Source of the DNA: Escherichia phage DTL
Direction: 5' to 3' (one strand)
DNA length: 45,814 nucleotides
Sequence record: MG050172
Below are positions 586 to 5,659 of the stretch, one piece after another. Position numbers and translations under genes: made by a program. Position 1 is the first letter of the stretch; each line of letters opens with the position of its first letter. The notes below the pieces were generated by a model. The model did not search any database and was not told the origin of the DNA. It saw nothing but the letters and a program-made list of their open reading frames with translations.

Positions 586-1722
586 ATGGCAACTGCAAAG
601 ATTACCAACGAAGAACTTCGCGAAGAGCTGAAAAATGGCATGACCAACAAGGCAATCTCAGAGAAGTACGGAATGAACATTCGCAACGTTGAATTGCGTC
701 GTAGTAAATTGGCAAAATCCGGCGAGCTTCATGGAAACCCTGGAATTAAGAAGCTAGTTCCTGACGGCTATTTGGTCAAGGGGACTTCAACAATGATTGA
801 CGCTGAAGGTAACGAAAAGATTATATGGGTAAAGACTTCAATAGACAATGAGCGCCTTGAAGTACTAATGGAGCAAGCTCGAGAGGCATTTTGTTCAGAG
901 TTGCCAAAAGCTATTCCATCTCAATCACCTAATGTTAACTTTGATGATAACACGCTTTCTATGTATCCAGTTTTTGATTTGCACATTGGGGCAATGGCTC
1001 ACAAACATGAGTGCGGCGAAAACTATGATACAGCAACAGCAGAGAAGGTTATGAATGGGTTCTTTGACTACGCTGTAGATAAGGCACCAAACTCTAAGAA
1101 TGCTGTATTGGTATTGGGTGGCGATTTCCTACATTACGATTCTCTGGAGGCTAAAACCCCGGCATCAGGTCACATATTAGATAGTGACAGTCGTTACGCC
1201 AAGATTGTTTATGTCGCAATCCGGTCAGTTCGTCGTGCGATTTCTAGAATGATGGAAAAGCATCAAGTTATTGATATTAAAGTAATAAGTGGGAATCACG
1301 ACGAGGCTGGGATGGTTTGGCTTCGCGCTGCTCTTGCTGCATTTTATGAAGACGAACCGCGAGTAAATGTTGATGTTAGCCCAGCTGCAATGATGATGAC
1401 AAGCTTTGGAACGACGCTTATTGGATACACGCATGGTCACCAAATGCGAAAAGCCGATACCCGACTAACTGTTATGGCAACTGATTTTCGTAAGTTATTT
1501 GGTCAAAGTGAGTATGTTTACACACATAGCGGACACTGGCATTCGCAGAAGATTACAGAAACAAACCTGGGAATTGATGAGGTTCACGGGCAGCTTGGAA
1601 GTCCTGACGCGTACTCCGCAAATGGCGGCTGGCGCTCTCAACGTCAAGCGGCAGTTATTGTCTACCATAAAGAATTCGGTGAAGTTGGTCGATTCATTTG
1701 TCGCCCTAAAATGTTTAGCTAA
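586..1722 (+). CDS. putative metallophosphoesterase with N-terminal HTH-like region
   Basis: 378-aa ORF; calcineurin-like motifs LGGDFLHYD and SGNHDE; RBS AAGGAA upstream; stop TAA abuts ATAGCAC element. Confidence 0.5.
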   Translation: MATAKITNEELREELKNGMTNKAISEKYGMNIRNVELRRSKLAKSGELHGNPGIKKLVPDGYLVKGTSTMIDAEGNEKIIWVKTSIDNERLEVLMEQAREAFCSELPKAIPSQSPNVNFDDNTLSMYPVFDLHIGAMAHKHECGENYDTATAEKVMNGFFDYAVDKAPNSKNAVLVLGGDFLHYDSLEAKTPASGHILDSDSRYAKIVYVAIRSVRRAISRMMEKHQVIDIKVISGNHDEAGMVWLRAALAAFYEDEPRVNVDVSPAAMMMTSFGTTLIGYTHGHQMRKADTRLTVMATDFRKLFGQSEYVYTHSGHWHSQKITETNLGIDEVHGQLGSPDAYSANGGWRSQRQAAVIVYHKEFGEVGRFICRPKMFS

Positions 1723-1793: not shown

Positions 1794-2222
1794 ATGAATT
1801 GGCATGAACATTACGATTACAAAGATGGAAAGCTTTATAGGAAGTACCAAAACCACAATCACCCGGCAGGAAAGGAGTGTGGCTGGATTGATTTAAGGGG
1901 TTACGTTAGGACTAAGCTGTTTTCAAAGATGACTTTTGCCCATCTAGTAATATGGGAAATGCATAACGGAGAGGTTCCCGAGGGCATGGAGATCGACCAC
2001 ATTAATGGAGTTAAGCATGATAACAGGATTGAGAACCTAAGGTGCGTAGATAGGTGGGTAAACTGCAAGAATATGGCGAAGAGAAAAGACAATAAAAGCG
2101 GGCAAACTGGAGTTAGTTACGTTGAGTCAAGAAATGTTTGGGTAGTAAGTATACATGTAAACAAATTCACACATAGTCACACGTGCGATACGAAAGATGA
2201 GGCAATTTCAATTGCAAAATAA
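1794..2222 (+). CDS. HNH homing endonuclease
   Basis: Signature AHLVIWEMHNGEVPEGMEIDHINGVKHDNRIENLR; RBS GGAG upstream. Confidence 0.8.
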   Translation: MNWHEHYDYKDGKLYRKYQNHNHPAGKECGWIDLRGYVRTKLFSKMTFAHLVIWEMHNGEVPEGMEIDHINGVKHDNRIENLRCVDRWVNCKNMAKRKDNKSGQTGVSYVESRNVWVVSIHVNKFTHSHTCDTKDEAISIAK

Positions 2223-2348: not shown

Positions 2349-2525
2349 ATGACTAAAATGATTTATTGCACCAAGAACAACTCCAAGACACTGCCATTTA
2401 CAGTTAACCAGCCGTACAATGCAGAGTATCAGGGTGACGGATACTACAAAATTTACGGTGACGATATGACGTGGATTTTAGCGCCGATTGACGGTTCGTT
2501 GGTTGAATTTATTATCGCAGACTAG
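2349..2525 (+). CDS. small hypothetical protein (58 aa)
   Basis: ATG after RBS-like AGAGAGGAAG; preceded by CATCGAAACGAGAC leader motif; followed by terminator. Confidence 0.3.
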   Translation: MTKMIYCTKNNSKTLPFTVNQPYNAEYQGDGYYKIYGDDMTWILAPIDGSLVEFIIAD

Positions 2526-2551: not shown

Positions 2552-2578
2552 GGGGAGCCTTTTGGCTCCCTTTTTTTA
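2552..2578 (+). terminator. rho-independent terminator
   Basis: GGGAGCC-TTTT-GGCTCCC hairpin followed by T7 run. Confidence 0.7.
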
Positions 2579-2655: not shown

Positions 2656-2871
2656 ATGAGGGAAGTAATTAACGCCGCTACGGCATCAACTGGCGGTGCT
2701 GCGTTTACTGGAGCTGCAACTGGTCAAATGACTATAGCAATAATCAGCCTTATCGCTCTAATCATTTTTGGAGCTTGGGGGGCTTATTGGAAGTATAAGG
2801 ATAGCCAGGCGATTCGCAGAGCGCTTGAATCTGGGGATTTAAAAACAGCAATCAATATAAGGAGCAAATAA
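2656..2871 (+). CDS. putative holin
   Basis: Small protein with hydrophobic TM segment IAIISLIALIIFGAWGAYW and charged C-terminus; RBS AGGTGG; immediately upstream of endolysin. Confidence 0.55.
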   Translation: MREVINAATASTGGAAFTGAATGQMTIAIISLIALIIFGAWGAYWKYKDSQAIRRALESGDLKTAINIRSK

Positions 2872-3357
2872 ATGAAGCAGAAGCTGCTAATTAGCGCGGC
2901 TACGGCTGCGGCAATATACATCGCAGCGCCGCTTATTGAGCTCGTTGAGGGTGTGGAGAACAAGCCTTACATGGACATTGCCGGAATCCCTACGGTGTGT
3001 TCCGGTATTACCGGTCCAGATGTGGTCTGGGGTAAAACATACAGCAACAGGGAGTGCCGGAACCTGCTTGAGAAACACATTGAGATTCATGACAAGCATG
3101 TTCAAAGTGCTGTAACCTACCCAATAGCACCGCAGACAAGAGCGGCGTTAATCAGCTTTAGCTACAATGTTGGAGGCTCAGCGATGAGGAAATCAACTGC
3201 TGTTAAGTTGATTAACCAGGGTAAAGTGGAGCAGGGCTGTAAGGCTCTAGGCCTTTGGAATAAAGCTACCGTTAATAGCAAGAAGGTTGTGGTTAAGGGG
3301 TTAGTAAATCGCAGGAATGAGGAGATTAAGTTATGCTTAAGTGGATTGCAGCGTTAG
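2872..3357 (+). CDS. SAR endolysin (T4-lysozyme-like muramidase)
   Basis: N-terminal signal-anchor-release segment; catalytic E-x8-D-x5-T pattern (ELVEGVENKPYMDIAGIPT); start overlaps holin stop (TAAATG). Confidence 0.75.
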   Translation: MKQKLLISAATAAAIYIAAPLIELVEGVENKPYMDIAGIPTVCSGITGPDVVWGKTYSNRECRNLLEKHIEIHDKHVQSAVTYPIAPQTRAALISFSYNVGGSAMRKSTAVKLINQGKVEQGCKALGLWNKATVNSKKVVVKGLVNRRNEEIKLCLSGLQR

Positions 3358-3722
3358 TAATGTGCGTAGCTTTATCTGGGTGTTCAGCAACATCTGCTCT
3401 GACTGGTTTGATTGGCAGTAAGCCAGAGATTAGCGCTCAAGCTGGTGCAGAGAACAATAAGGTTGGTGTTGGGTTAACGAACAAGGTTGACTCCAGTAAC
3501 TCCAGCGAAGCTACGGTTAAGGATTCCAAGGTTGGGTCACTGGATAGCTCGAGCGGGAAAAAGACTGCTGATAACTCTATTAAGGCCTCAACAATTACCG
3601 CCGAAAAGATTGAGATTACTAATAACGAATCATCAGCGCTTCCGTGGGTTGGAACAGGAGCTATGGGTCTGCTGGTTTTAATTCTCATGGCATTAATCTT
3701 AAGACGTAAAAAAGCCTCCTAA
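3333..3722 (+). CDS. unimolecular spanin (T1 gp11-like): OM lipoprotein signal plus C-terminal TMD
   Basis: Lipobox LSGC near N-terminus, Ser/Thr-rich periplasmic region, C-terminal TM helix GAMGLLVLILMALIL then RRKK; overlaps endolysin 3' end. Confidence 0.7.
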   Translation: MLKWIAALVMCVALSGCSATSALTGLIGSKPEISAQAGAENNKVGVGLTNKVDSSNSSEATVKDSKVGSLDSSSGKKTADNSIKASTITAEKIEITNNESSALPWVGTGAMGLLVLILMALILRRKKAS

Positions 3723-3729
3723 TGGAGGC
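3714..3729. terminator. putative bidirectional terminator hairpin between convergent genes
   Basis: GCCTCC-TAAT-GGAGGC hairpin flanked by A-run upstream and T-run downstream. Confidence 0.45.
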
Positions 3730-3736
3730 TATATTT

Positions 3737-4072
3737 TTAGCTAAATAACTCGTCGTCCGTCATTTTTCCTATGTTCATCATCTCTTTTATGTACTTGCTC
3801 TCATACCCGCTAAGCGCCTCAAAGTTAAACTCAAATGGCCTCTTCAAGCTGCCATTGCTAACAAACTCACCACACTTACCATCAATGTATCCTGCAGTAA
3901 GCATCTTTGCGCAAAACTCCTTTGATGCAGCGCTGCAAAATTCCCTATGCGATAAGCCTGCTGCCTTGCTGAATCTCTGAGACTCCTTATGTTGGTAGAT
4001 GAATCGCGCCAAATGCTGGCGCGTAAAGTAACTAAAACTTTCACAGAACTTAAATATATCGAGCAGGAACAT
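3737..4072 (-). CDS. hypothetical protein
   Basis: 111-aa ORF immediately downstream of the 527-aa minus-strand gene. Confidence 0.4.
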   Translation of the reverse strand: MFLLDIFKFCESFSYFTRQHLARFIYQHKESQRFSKAAGLSHREFCSAASKEFCAKMLTAGYIDGKCGEFVSNGSLKRPFEFNFEALSGYESKYIKEMMNIGKMTDDELFS

Positions 4073-4075
4073 TTA

Positions 4076-5659
4076 TCACCCCAGCAGTCGCGGATTAATG
4101 TAAACTTTATCACCAATCAGGCACGTATAGTTCTTCTCATCGAGCATCGGCAGTAAGTGATCTTTAATCTTCGTCATTACTCCAGCCTGAGCCTCGAACG
4201 GCTTAACCTTGCGAGCCGCTTCATACAATGAACGAATGCCAACAACACCCTTACCGTTTTTGCCTTGCTTGATCAGAATGTCAATCAACTTATTCATCTC
4301 GGCATTGTCACCAGCGTGACCTGCGGCATTAGCAGATGAAAGGTAAGTTTTGCTTAGTTCATTAAACATAATTACAGCTTCTTGCATGGTATCCAATTCA
4401 ATTTCCCTGGACTTCTGCGGACTACCACCATTTGGGTTGAACCAGTTACGCACAGTGTGAAGAACCGCCGCAATCCTGATAGCCTGTTTATCGAATTTAC
4501 CCAGGGCGCCGCGCAGCATCGTGTGCGAATATTTTCCGCCGTCAGCAAGGTGCGGCTCCATTTCCTGGCGTGCTTTGTTGAGATATTTCATTGCCGAGTT
4601 GCTAACCGTGAGCTTAACATCTTGTTCGTTCATTATTTCGTGAACCAAGCGGAAATAATCAGCCTTCAGCCCACCATCAATAGGTTCGTAAGTTGAGTCT
4701 CCATTCTCATCAACGAACACGCGCTCGCCAAGAAATGACTTCTCGCGTACAAGCAGAAAACGCTCAGAAACACCGATACCACGCGCACCAGCATTCATGA
4801 TTGCGTTAATCGTCTCATCCTGCGCAATTACAGATATGCAGCCCATAGCAACGAAACTCATATTATTCTCTGAGTTCGCGCGCGCAATAGATACGTTACC
4901 CGCATCCCACGCTTTAAGCACGAGTTCGCTGTTCGTTTTCTTAGAGCCATCACCATAGGTCATGCCTAAAAGTGAGTTAACGCTAGTTGCTTCGTCAGAA
5001 ATTACCGCAAAGTTGCCCTGACGGTTGTTTATTCGCGCAAGACCTTCCGGCGTGGTGTCGGATACGGGGAAAACGATATCGCAAAGTTTCTCGAGCTTTT
5101 CCTCAAGATCCTCCTTCTCCTCAAAAAGAGAGGCCATCTCTGACGGAGATTTTTCCTGCTTAATCTCTTTGGATAATGCAGATAGTTTGGCCATAATCTT
5201 TTTTCGCTCACGTTTTCGCACTTCATTAAGCCGCTCAGTCTCAGCAATCATTGGAGCAATTGAAAGTGAGTTGATTGCTGATTTACCAGTCGATGGCGGC
5301 TGGCTTGTTACAACATAAAGCGAAGTTGGTTGCTGAGTTCCGTGATACTCAACTGTAAATCGTCCTAGCATGGCGGCAGAAATACACCCCAGGAAGTGCA
5401 TGTATGCGGACGACTCCGGAAACTGAACAGAACGAGCGATATTGGATGATAGTTTGCCAACAACATCAATATCATTACCCAATGAGATTACGGGATACTT
5501 GTCATTAGCCGCATCAATCTCGACTGGCGCTTTCCAGAATGATTGAGACTGGCGATATCCATTAGCATTAATAGCGACTCGCAGTGGGGTGAGGTTGTCT
5601 GCTGCAGCAATTGCCATAACCTGTTCAACAGATAGTTTATCTTCGTTGAAATCAAACAT
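4076..5659 (-). CDS. hypothetical protein (527 aa), full-length member of a two-member paralog family
   Basis: Long ORF; N- and C-terminal ~40 and ~80 aa are homologous to the 140-aa product of 8671..9093. Confidence 0.5.
   Translation of the reverse strand: MFDFNEDKLSVEQVMAIAAADNLTPLRVAINANGYRQSQSFWKAPVEIDAANDKYPVISLGNDIDVVGKLSSNIARSVQFPESSAYMHFLGCISAAMLGRFTVEYHGTQQPTSLYVVTSQPPSTGKSAINSLSIAPMIAETERLNEVRKRERKKIMAKLSALSKEIKQEKSPSEMASLFEEKEDLEEKLEKLCDIVFPVSDTTPEGLARINNRQGNFAVISDEATSVNSLLGMTYGDGSKKTNSELVLKAWDAGNVSIARANSENNMSFVAMGCISVIAQDETINAIMNAGARGIGVSERFLLVREKSFLGERVFVDENGDSTYEPIDGGLKADYFRLVHEIMNEQDVKLTVSNSAMKYLNKARQEMEPHLADGGKYSHTMLRGALGKFDKQAIRIAAVLHTVRNWFNPNGGSPQKSREIELDTMQEAVIMFNELSKTYLSSANAAGHAGDNAEMNKLIDILIKQGKNGKGVVGIRSLYEAARKVKPFEAQAGVMTKIKDHLLPMLDEKNYTCLIGDKVYINPRLLG

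Follow-up and report, generated by a model that had tools for sequence, protein, structure and literature searches.

The window, that is the whole 45,814-nucleotide stretch of Escherichia phage DTL (MG050172) considered here, very probably carries the late lysis cassette of a Rtp-like coliphage (T1 superfamily, Drexlerviridae) acting through a pinholin / SAR-endolysin / u-spanin pathway. Three tightly packed open reading frames fill positions 2656-3722 of the plus strand and were identified as holin, endolysin and spanin, thus confirming the compact cassette that the initial annotation had proposed (Table 1). The profile search assigned all three proteins to lysis families of PHROG, and the identities of the genes, their homologies and their sequence motifs were observed directly. 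The cassette is a standard three-gene lysis module of the T1/Rtp type, which is already known and of which near-identical copies are annotated in public genomes; altogether, 95 phage records carry it.

Table 1. Coordinates of the lysis genes, their main sequence features and the bordering elements in the window.
Feature	Position	Strand	Basis
DUF7244 / standalone SH3-like protein, 58 aa, T1 gp14 position	2349..2525	+	Pfam PF23896 at 1.3e-29
Intrinsic terminator, GGGGAGCC-TTTT-GGCTCCCT then T-run	2552..2577	+	terminator scan
Holin, 71 aa, T1 gp13 family	2656..2871	+	Shine-Dalgarno AAGGTGG 2644-2650; PHROG 2877
SAR endolysin, 161 aa, GH24 T4-lysozyme family, R21 type	2872..3357	+	Shine-Dalgarno AGGAG 2860-2864; Pfam and PDB matches
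SAR-like N-terminal segment codons, residues 5-22, LLISAATAAAIYIAAPLI	2884..2937	+	uncharged run without Cys
Catalytic triad codons, Glu26-8X-Asp35-5X-Thr41	2947..2994	+	regular-expression match, invariant columns
u-spanin, 129 aa, T1 gp11 family	3333..3722	+	Shine-Dalgarno GAGGAG 3319-3324; PHROG 1804
Lipobox Leu14-Ser15-Gly16-Cys17, then Ser18 at +2	3372..3383	+	pattern [LVI][ASTVI][GAS]C
C-terminal transmembrane helix, about residues 103-123, then RRKKAS tail	3639..3701	+	hydrophobicity, AlphaFold2
Bidirectional intrinsic terminator, AGCCTCC-TAAT-GGAGGCT	3713..3730	both	terminator scan

Reading of the junctions showed that the holin stop codon (TAA, 2869-2871) is immediately followed by the ATG of the endolysin at 2872, while the endolysin and spanin genes share 25 nt (3333-3357). 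The overlapping boundaries described earlier are therefore found at the second junction, whereas at the first one the two genes abut without overlap. Shine-Dalgarno sequences were read upstream of all three genes. When the cassette was compared with that of Rtp, substitutions at codon positions 1, 2 and 3 amounted to 2/0/12 in the holin, 13/5/56 in the endolysin and 1/0/21 in the spanin gene, and third positions likewise took most of the substitutions in the comparison with OzMSK. This bias in the three genes indicates that purifying selection acts on their frames, which are thus no chance open reading frames. An Rz1-like second spanin gene, either embedded or overlapping, was sought in the other frames of 2872-3722, where no open reading frame with a lipobox was found.

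The terminator scan placed intrinsic terminators on both sides of the cassette. The first ends the DUF7244 gene upstream of the lysis genes, and the alignment revealed a hairpin followed by a T-run at the equivalent place in Rtp, OzMSK, T1, SH6, KKP 3830 and N141; the second overlaps the stop codon of the spanin and sits between convergent genes. On the plus strand, the promoter scan detected no sigma-70-like promoter from the upstream terminator to the holin gene. An extended -10 candidate picked by eye, TGCTAATGT at 2597-2605, was rejected, as it matches 3/6 positions and is unconserved outside the Rtp group.

Rtp (rtp63, rtp64 and rtp65), BEK1-1, CEB_EC3a, IME253 and OzMSK agree with DTL in the order and the lengths of the genes as well as in the genes that flank them. 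The cassette shares 89-91% nucleotide identity with Rtp and its close relatives, and at the protein level its identity to them is 97-99% (holin), 90-91% (endolysin) and 91-99% (spanin). The cassette of the window differs from the Rtp-like ones by point differences only; in its upstream region, the window contains a HNH endonuclease gene that is absent from Rtp. A SAR endolysin and a u-spanin are annotated in the records of OzMSK, KPN N141 and KKP 3830, the first two of which also name the holin, and the annotation of OzMSK is explicit for all three genes (holin / SAR endolysin / u-spanin). The records are in conflict on two start codons, that of the spanin in Rtp and that of the holin in OzMSK, both discussed below.

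The homology extends to T1, whose proteins gp13, gp12 and gp11 aligned by BLASTP over their full length with holin, endolysin and spanin, showing 58%, 46% and 37% identity (E 3e-31, 6e-45 and 5e-25, respectively), the holin alignment being without gaps. The alignment of the spanin with T1 gp11, which had been suggested as a check, was thus positive from end to end, with 40% identity when calculated by MAFFT and an identical lipobox LSGC. The T1 holin has 71 aa as in DTL, and the other two T1 proteins come close to those of DTL in length, with 162 aa in the endolysin and 133 aa in the spanin. T1 also has an annotated terminator after gene 11, in the same position as here, and the order of genes in the window, i.e. 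exonuclease, HNH, DUF7244, holin, endolysin, spanin, terminator, gp10 and helicase, the last two on the minus strand, matches that of T1 from gp16 to gp9. The T1 lysis genes, in contrast, overlap by one base, and the C-terminal helix of the spanin and the region 128-140 of the endolysin are divergent from their T1 counterparts. The T1-like assignment originally made for the cassette was then retained as far as the homology and the gp16-gp9 synteny are concerned, but it had to be refined. T1 belongs to the Tunavirinae, and the phages closest to the DTL cassette are Braunvirinae. The phage is Rtp-like (Braunvirinae, Rtpvirus) and not T1 proper.

A 2026 paper (PMC13164509) suggests an accessory role in the lysis module of Drexlerviridae for the DUF7244 protein, whose gene is located upstream and beyond the coordinates of the initial annotation. 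The protein has no signal sequence and its gene is separated from the holin by the terminator. Its membership in the cassette is putative, and a function as lysis modulator is a lesser possibility.

The holin matched PHROG 2877 with an E value of 2.2e-37 over residues 1-71 of the 71-position profile, while none of the Pfam and NCBIfam holin models gave a match. Longer open reading frames starting at 2578 or 2602 were examined and discarded. The former start lies within the T-tail of the terminator, the latter corresponds to the holin of the OzMSK record, which is 18 codons too long, and in Rtp, KKP 3830 and N141 stop codons interrupt the extension. Since the longer frames are closed in these relatives, the 71-aa protein matches the PHROG profile from end to end and a strong Shine-Dalgarno sequence precedes it, 2656 was taken as the right start.

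Three regions could be recognized in the holin: a highly conserved segment (residues 7-23) composed for 94% of Gly, Ala, Ser and Thr, in which 10 positions are invariant when 7 phages are aligned, a strongly hydrophobic helix (25-45) and a basic C-terminal tail (46-71). The crude insertion score was about +6 kcal/mol for the segment 7-23 and -1.5 for the helix 25-45, and Gln24 is the sole residue between them. The protein is probably a pinholin. Public sources disagree on the number of transmembrane domains, for which the T1 RefSeq entry gives one, whereas both OzMSK and the TLS paper (PMC11447400) give two, and our literature search returned no experiments on a T1-family holin. BLASTP gave no sequence similarity between the phage 21 holin S21 and the DTL holin (E 5.1). 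The crude hydrophobicity of the holin N-segment (+6.1) equalled that of TMD1 of S21 (+6.2), and consecutive small-xxx-small motifs occur in residues 7-23 as they do in S21 TMD1. The pinholin assignment is a tentative one.

The main alternative concerns the topology of the holin. It keeps the same cassette and describes the holin as a single-pass protein, with the N-terminus out, the C-terminus in and the Gly/Ala/Ser/Thr-rich N-segment located in the periplasm, which may form large holes; we regard it as possible but unlikely. The T1 RefSeq note, which reads 'contains single transmembrane domain', speaks in favor of this topology, as do the composition of segment 7-23 and its unfavorable insertion score, the scant room that Gln24 alone leaves for a hairpin turn before the helix 25-45 and the missing similarity to S21. 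Moreover, canonical holins can serve SAR endolysins (PMC6116005), and, with a similarly doubtful standing, the SAR endolysin might still be activated by depolarisation under a single-pass holin, as in P1 with its canonical holin. Against it, S21 has a SAR-type TMD1 that was validated by experiment and receives an equal score on the crude scale; the small-xxx-small motifs of segment 7-23 resemble those of S21 TMD1, the segment is highly conserved, and specialist annotators name the family two-helix pinholins.

A further option, which we consider improbable and put forward tentatively, is that the 71-aa holin of T1 and Rtp represents a distinct topological class, in which a stable helix (25-45) follows the invariant, glycine-zipper-like segment 7-23 without a loop. 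It is comparably improbable that in such a class the segment could time or inhibit the holin while located on the periplasmic side or shallowly at the membrane interface. The pinholin is kept as the preferred reading in what follows.

The endolysin was assigned to the T4-lysozyme family by Pfam PF00959 (Phage_lysozyme, 2.3e-34) and to the endolysins of PHROG 7 (2.8e-48). Its best relatives of solved structure are the SAR lysozymes RrrD of DLP12 and R21 (4zpu and 3hde, E about 1e-25; 3.5e-25 for 3hde), the entries 3hde and 3hdf being those of phage 21 R21; the alignments with them open within the SAR segment. With these enzymes (3hde, 3hdf, 4zpu) it shares the GH24 fold family, the E-8X-D-5X-T triad, a Cys-free N-terminal SAR segment and four Cys at aligned positions. 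According to the alignment, the SAR segment is joined to the catalytic Glu by 4 residues in DTL versus roughly 9 in R21. The holin S21 and the Rz/Rz1 pair that accompany R21 in phage 21 also differ from the DTL situation, where the holin is unrelated in sequence and the partner of the endolysin is a u-spanin.

The N-terminal hydrophobic SAR-like segment that the initial annotation had attributed to the endolysin was located at residues 5-22, which are uncharged, weakly hydrophobic (mean Kyte-Doolittle value 2.09), consist for 50% of Gly, Ala, Ser and Thr and are preceded by K2 and K4. The crude insertion score of the segment is about +1.5 kcal/mol, while the helices of spanin and holin score -2.1 and -1.5, respectively, and the same pattern is repeated in 6 endolysin homologues. 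The triad, defined as Glu-8X-Asp/Cys-5X-Thr (PMC3556154), corresponds to E26, D35 and T41, which are invariant together with the four Cys (43, 62, 123 and 155) in an alignment of 7 phages; none of the Cys falls within residues 1-25.

These features bear on the choice of P1 Lyz (1xjt, 1xju) as a term of comparison, which was not upheld. P1 Lyz has the same general architecture, i.e. a SAR segment joined to a catalytic domain of T4-lysozyme type, but the relationship is remote (E 0.004-0.005, 20 bits; 0.004 for 1xju). P1 Lyz carries a regulatory Cys in the triad, locked in a disulfide until a Cys of its SAR segment liberates it, whereas the DTL enzyme has Asp35 and a Cys-free SAR segment. As a consequence of these two features, the disulfide-isomerisation switch of Lyz (PMC3556154) cannot apply to the DTL endolysin, and R21 is the right model.

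By homology with R21 and RrrD and from published work (PMC6116005), the segment would not be cleaved, and the endolysin would remain tethered to the membrane while inactive, being released on depolarisation. It is very improbable that the N-terminus is instead an ordinary cleavable Sec signal peptide, cut for example after Ala12-Ala13-Ala14; equally improbable is the enzyme then being secreted like Lys44 of the Oenococcus phage fOg44, with the energised membrane instead of tethering preventing its activity. The n-region with K2 and K4, the h-region and the small residues including the AAA run are laid out as in a signal peptide, and secreted endolysins with cleaved signals are known (PMC6116005), but the same source reports that R21 and RrrD, the nearest solved relatives, keep their N-terminal signal uncleaved. 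In addition, Pro20 and the missing polar c-region are atypical of a cleaved signal, the segment is followed by Glu26 at a distance of four residues, and the alignment with R21 opens at query residue 12, inside the hydrophobic segment. The corresponding segment of R21 reportedly joins the active fold.

The third protein matched PHROG 1804 (Rz-like spanin) at 8.5e-50 and, as the initial annotation had recognized, combines a lipoprotein signal with a transmembrane helix at the C-terminus in a single polypeptide. The signal comprises K3 in the n-region, a h-region from W4 to A13 and the lipobox LSGC, which is that of wild-type T1 gp11 (PMC6139136); G16, C17 and S18 are invariant in an alignment of 8 phages. 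The hydrophobic run 100-123, with a crude insertion score of -2.06, is followed by RRKKAS, and both helix and basic tail are kept across the 8 phages. Sorting to the outer membrane (Lol avoidance) follows the rule that no Asp occupies position +2 after the lipid-modified Cys. In the DTL spanin this position is occupied by Ser18, as expected for an outer-membrane lipoprotein.

Single-sequence AlphaFold2 modelled the C-terminal helix at residues 106-127 with pLDDT up to 82 in this block, and returned no secondary structure between residues 28 and 105; with a mean pLDDT of 57, the model as a whole was uninformative on the periplasmic domain. The middle of the protein is rich in Ser, Thr and Lys, and a crude Chou-Fasman pass indicated short strand patches only; in the gp11-family spanins the periplasmic domain consists mostly of beta strands after a short helix (Kongari et al. 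2018). The only Cys residues are C11, in the signal, and C17, predicted to be lipoylated, the periplasmic stretch 18-100 being Cys-free.

The start of the spanin was placed at 3333 on the basis of the GAGGAG sequence 8 nt upstream and of the alignment with T1 gp11 and the other members of the family. The start used in the RefSeq record of Rtp (Met10, 3360) was rejected, as it would leave the lipoprotein signal without its basic n-region and with little of its h-region. When both are read from the equivalent start, the DTL and Rtp spanins are 99% identical. For the T1 gp11 family, a threshold of 40% identity across 40% of the protein length has been set (Kongari et al. 2018), and the DTL protein is related to this family through RTP, which is a listed member (PMC6139136 Table 5).

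That the third gene encodes a generic phage lipoprotein, e.g. a Cor-like superinfection-exclusion factor found by chance next to the endolysin, is extremely improbable. In favor of this reading, the product is a small lipoprotein without a match among Pfam models, and a lipoprotein, Cor, is encoded by T1-like phages (PMC13164509). Against it, the protein matches PHROG 1804, conserves the C-terminal transmembrane helix that is required for bridging the two membranes and is homologous over its full length to T1 gp11, which complements a lambda RzRz1 defect (PMC6139136); in many phages, moreover, its gene closes the cassette and overlaps that of the endolysin. Spanins of the T1gp11 family also occur in Drulisvirus (KP34-like) podophages, with about 52-54% identity, in a different gene order (spanin, holin, endolysin, after the terminase) and next to holin and endolysin genes of 252 and 603 nt. 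A spanin of this type is thus insufficient to diagnose a T1-like siphophage, for which the whole cassette with its flanks is diagnostic.

The identification of the three genes suggests a lysis pathway whose steps we infer from the prototypes S21 and R21 of phage 21 and gp11 of T1. The endolysin would be exported by Sec and tethered in inactive form to the inner membrane by its weakly hydrophobic SAR helix (5-22), while the holin would accumulate in the same membrane and, at a programmed time, form small holes that collapse the proton-motive force. Depolarisation would then free the SAR helix, and the endolysin would refold in a R21-like manner, without a disulfide switch, and degrade the peptidoglycan. 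The spanin, lipoylated at Cys17 and sorted to the outer membrane by virtue of Ser at +2, would bridge the periplasm through its C-terminal helix inserted in the inner membrane. After the loss of peptidoglycan, it might disrupt the outer membrane, probably by fusion with the inner membrane, and the virions would be released. Spanins of the T1gp11 family accompany a pinholin and a SAR endolysin (PMC6139136), and the lysis modules of TLS (PMC11447400) and KanT1 (PMC13164509) have been described in the same way.

The cassette confirms that the window belongs to a Drexlerviridae (Rtp-like) phage, and the analysis fixes the correct starts of the holin (2656) and of the spanin (3333), which are wrong in some public records. 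Topology and hole size of the holin, structure and mechanism of the u-spanin and the role of DUF7244 are questions that concern the whole family and are not specific to DTL. The implied pathway, consisting of a pinholin, a R21-type SAR endolysin and a T1gp11-type u-spanin, corresponds to the model published for Drexlerviridae.

Analysis of the DTL window showed three consecutive ORFs at 2656-3722 (+), each matching a lysis family, in agreement with the contiguous holin, endolysin and spanin genes proposed by the initial annotation. The overlapping boundaries it described were confirmed at the endolysin/spanin junction, where the two genes share 25 nt, but not at the holin/endolysin junction, where the holin TAA (2869-2871) exactly abuts the endolysin ATG (2872). 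As read from the sequence, all three genes have good Shine-Dalgarno motifs at a spacing of 5-8 nt. Counted by codon position 1/2/3, the differences from phage Rtp were 2/0/12 (holin), 13/5/56 (endolysin) and 1/0/21 (spanin), and the nucleotide differences from phage OzMSK also fell overwhelmingly at third positions, which identifies the three ORFs as genuine genes subject to purifying selection. The antisense and off-frame ORFs of the region (83 aa at most) were discarded as by-products. A scan of the + strand from the upstream terminator to the holin start (2578-2655) revealed no sigma-70-like promoter. This spacer is kept within the Rtp group and not conserved with T1, KKP 3830 or N141; the cassette might be transcribed by read-through or from a phage-specific late promoter.

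Features of the lysis cassette and its neighbourhood in phage DTL
Feature	Position	Strand	Product	Signals, matches and context
gp16-like exonuclease	586-1722			Metallophos match weak, sub-threshold
HNH_3 homing endonuclease	1794-2222	+		1.6e-19; between exonuclease and DUF7244 genes
DUF7244 protein	2349-2525	+	58 aa	Pfam DUF7244, 1.3e-29; T1 gp14 position
Intrinsic terminator	2552-2577			Upstream of cassette
Holin	2656-2871	+	71 aa	Shine-Dalgarno AAGGTGG 2644-2650
Endolysin	2872-3357	+	161 aa	Shine-Dalgarno AGGAG 2860-2864
Spanin	3333-3722	+	129 aa	Shine-Dalgarno GAGGAG 3319-3324
Bidirectional terminator	3713-3730	both		Overlaps spanin stop codon, facing convergent gene
Small reverse gene	3737-4072	-		Past terminator, convergent with spanin
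527-aa gene	4076-5659	-	527 aa	Position of T1 gp9 helicase

The endolysin matched the Pfam Phage_lysozyme family (GH24, 2.3e-34) and showed 46% identity to the T1 endolysin gp12, while its top solved relatives were E. coli RrrD (4zpu, 7e-26) and the entries 3hde and 3hdf (about 1e-25), which represent the phage 21 SAR (signal-anchor-release) endolysin R21. The T4-lysozyme-type triad Glu26-8X-Asp35-5X-Thr41, a motif defined in PMC3556154, is present and, together with four cysteines, is invariant in an alignment of seven phages. An uncharged stretch with 50% Gly/Ala/Ser/Thr spans residues 5-22 (LLISAATAAAIYIAAPLI) and follows Lys2 and Lys4. The insertion score of this segment, estimated crudely by adding up Hessa insertion energies for the central position, was about +1.5 kcal/mol, compared with -1.5 kcal/mol for the holin helix and -2.1 kcal/mol for the spanin C-terminal helix, and the N-terminal segments of the homologues scored from +1.5 to +3.1 (6/6 examined); the segment is therefore marginally hydrophobic, as a SAR segment should be. 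The R21 alignment opens within it (query residue 12) and the catalytic Glu26 lies four residues past its end. The SAR-like N-terminus originally suggested was thus borne out, while P1 Lyz, originally named as comparator, was ruled out as a model. P1 Lyz shows no more than remote similarity (E 0.004-0.005), and its disulfide-caging switch, which requires a triad Cys (PMC3556154), cannot apply to the DTL endolysin, as residues 1-25 are devoid of Cys and the middle triad residue is Asp. The correct model is R21.

The spanin matched PHROG 1804 "Rz-like spanin" (8.5e-50), aligned end to end with the T1 u-spanin (unimolecular spanin) gp11 (37% identity, E 5e-25), as the initial annotation had anticipated, and shared 99% identity with the Rtp protein when the latter was translated from the equivalent start; tblastn detected related sequences in 1171 phage records, chiefly from phages of Klebsiella and Escherichia. 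Its signal comprises an n-region with K3, a hydrophobic h-region spanning 4-13 and, at 14-17, the lipobox LSGC, which is also that of wild-type T1 gp11 (PMC6139136); the Ser at +2 is consistent with sorting to the outer membrane. The periplasmic stretch 18-100 (83 residues) is Ser/Ala/Lys/Thr-rich and Cys-free, and a hydrophobic run (100-123) then leads to RRKKAS. The occurrence of the lipobox and of this run with its basic tail in one polypeptide supports the unimolecular type. Across eight phages the Gly-Cys-Ser residues do not vary, and both the C-terminal helix and the basic tail are conserved. Single-sequence AlphaFold2 placed the helix at 106-127 with a block pLDDT up to 82, in a model whose mean pLDDT is 57 and whose periplasmic part, expected to be beta-rich in this family, is not reliable. 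In the Rtp record (NC_007603), the rtp65 spanin (2059-2421) is called from the internal Met10, with truncation of the lipoprotein signal.

The holin matched PHROG 2877 "holin" (2.2e-37) across all 71 profile positions and showed 58% ungapped identity to the T1 holin gp13, while searches in Pfam and NCBIfam returned no model covering it. Segment 7-23 (AATASTGGAAFTGAATG) contains 94% Gly/Ala/Ser/Thr, ten positions invariant across seven phages and consecutive small-xxx-small motifs, and its crude hydrophobicity of +6.1 compares with +6.2 for the SAR-type TMD1 of the phage 21 pinholin S21. These features favour an S21-like pinholin, and a non-pinholin with single-helix topology seems rather unlikely, although Gln24 is the sole spacer between this segment and the strong helix 25-45, the holin has no sequence similarity to S21 and the T1 record refers to a "single transmembrane domain". 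No experiment on T1-family (PHROG 2877) holins was found in the literature. A single-helix holin would leave the overall lysis pathway unchanged, since canonical holins also serve SAR endolysins, as in P1 (PMC6116005). In the OzMSK record (PQ659294), the annotated holin (1603-1872) begins 18 codons ahead of the conserved start; this extension was rejected, as Rtp, KKP 3830 and N141 each have a stop codon closing it.

The gene order from the exonuclease to the 527-aa reverse gene reproduces that of T1 gp16 to gp9, and with this synteny the T1-like assignment is right at the family level; within the T1 family, phage DTL is Rtp-like. The cassette shares 89-91% nucleotide identity with Rtp-like phages (including BEK1-1, CEB_EC3a, IME253 and Rtp), Rtp being classified in Drexlerviridae, Braunvirinae, Rtpvirus. 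The best matches to the whole window (vB_Ec-G8, 2725-N35, CEB_EC3a and others) showed 86-88% nucleotide identity over 72-81% of the query, so that phage DTL probably represents a new species within the Rtp-like Braunvirinae. The spanin alone is no proof of a T1-like siphophage, since Drulisvirus podophages also carry T1gp11-family spanins, but in the order spanin, holin, endolysin. It looks as if this u-spanin family has spread horizontally, independently of the remaining cassette. In the Drulisvirus Klebsiella phage AttikonH4 (1501-2735), a 52% identical u-spanin lies before the holin and endolysin, directly past the terminase region.

The slot of the HNH_3 gene is occupied by gp15 in T1, by a phosphatase and a P-loop NTPase in OzMSK and by no gene in Rtp, indicating that this position beside the lysis cassette is variable. 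The DUF7244 protein was described in a 2026 paper (PMC13164509) as a standalone SH3 domain auxiliary to the Drexlerviridae lysis module. A periplasmic peptidoglycan-binding role before lysis sits awkwardly with its lack of an export signal and with the strong intrinsic terminator between its gene and the holin. A single tRNA-Arg (anticodon tct) occurs at 12077-12154 (+), and a tRNA-Arg is also annotated in related vB_EcoS-12210I-type records.

On the basis of the prototype systems, we infer that Sec would export the endolysin, whose SAR helix would hold it at the inner membrane in an inactive state. Holin triggering would depolarise the membrane, the SAR helix would exit the bilayer and the endolysin would refold to the active form, as R21 does (PMC6116005), and degrade the peptidoglycan. 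The spanin, predicted to be anchored by its lipid in the outer membrane and by its helix in the inner membrane, would be freed from the mesh and disrupt the outer membrane, a step that probably involves membrane fusion (PMC6139136).

In the T1gp11 u-spanin family of Kongari et al. 2018 (PMC6139136), RTP is one of 28 members, and for all but two of them the authors described a cassette that also holds a pinholin and a SAR endolysin. The same architecture was reported for T1, TLS and KanT1 in the TLS (PMC11447400) and KanT1 (PMC13164509) papers, the latter finding that 508 of 522 Drexlerviridae share a core of exonuclease, holin, endolysin and spanin. GenBank labels a SAR endolysin and a u-spanin in OzMSK, KPN N141 and KKP 3830, with the holin also named in the first two records. 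The initial annotation had correctly read the DTL cassette, which belongs to an already known lysis system.
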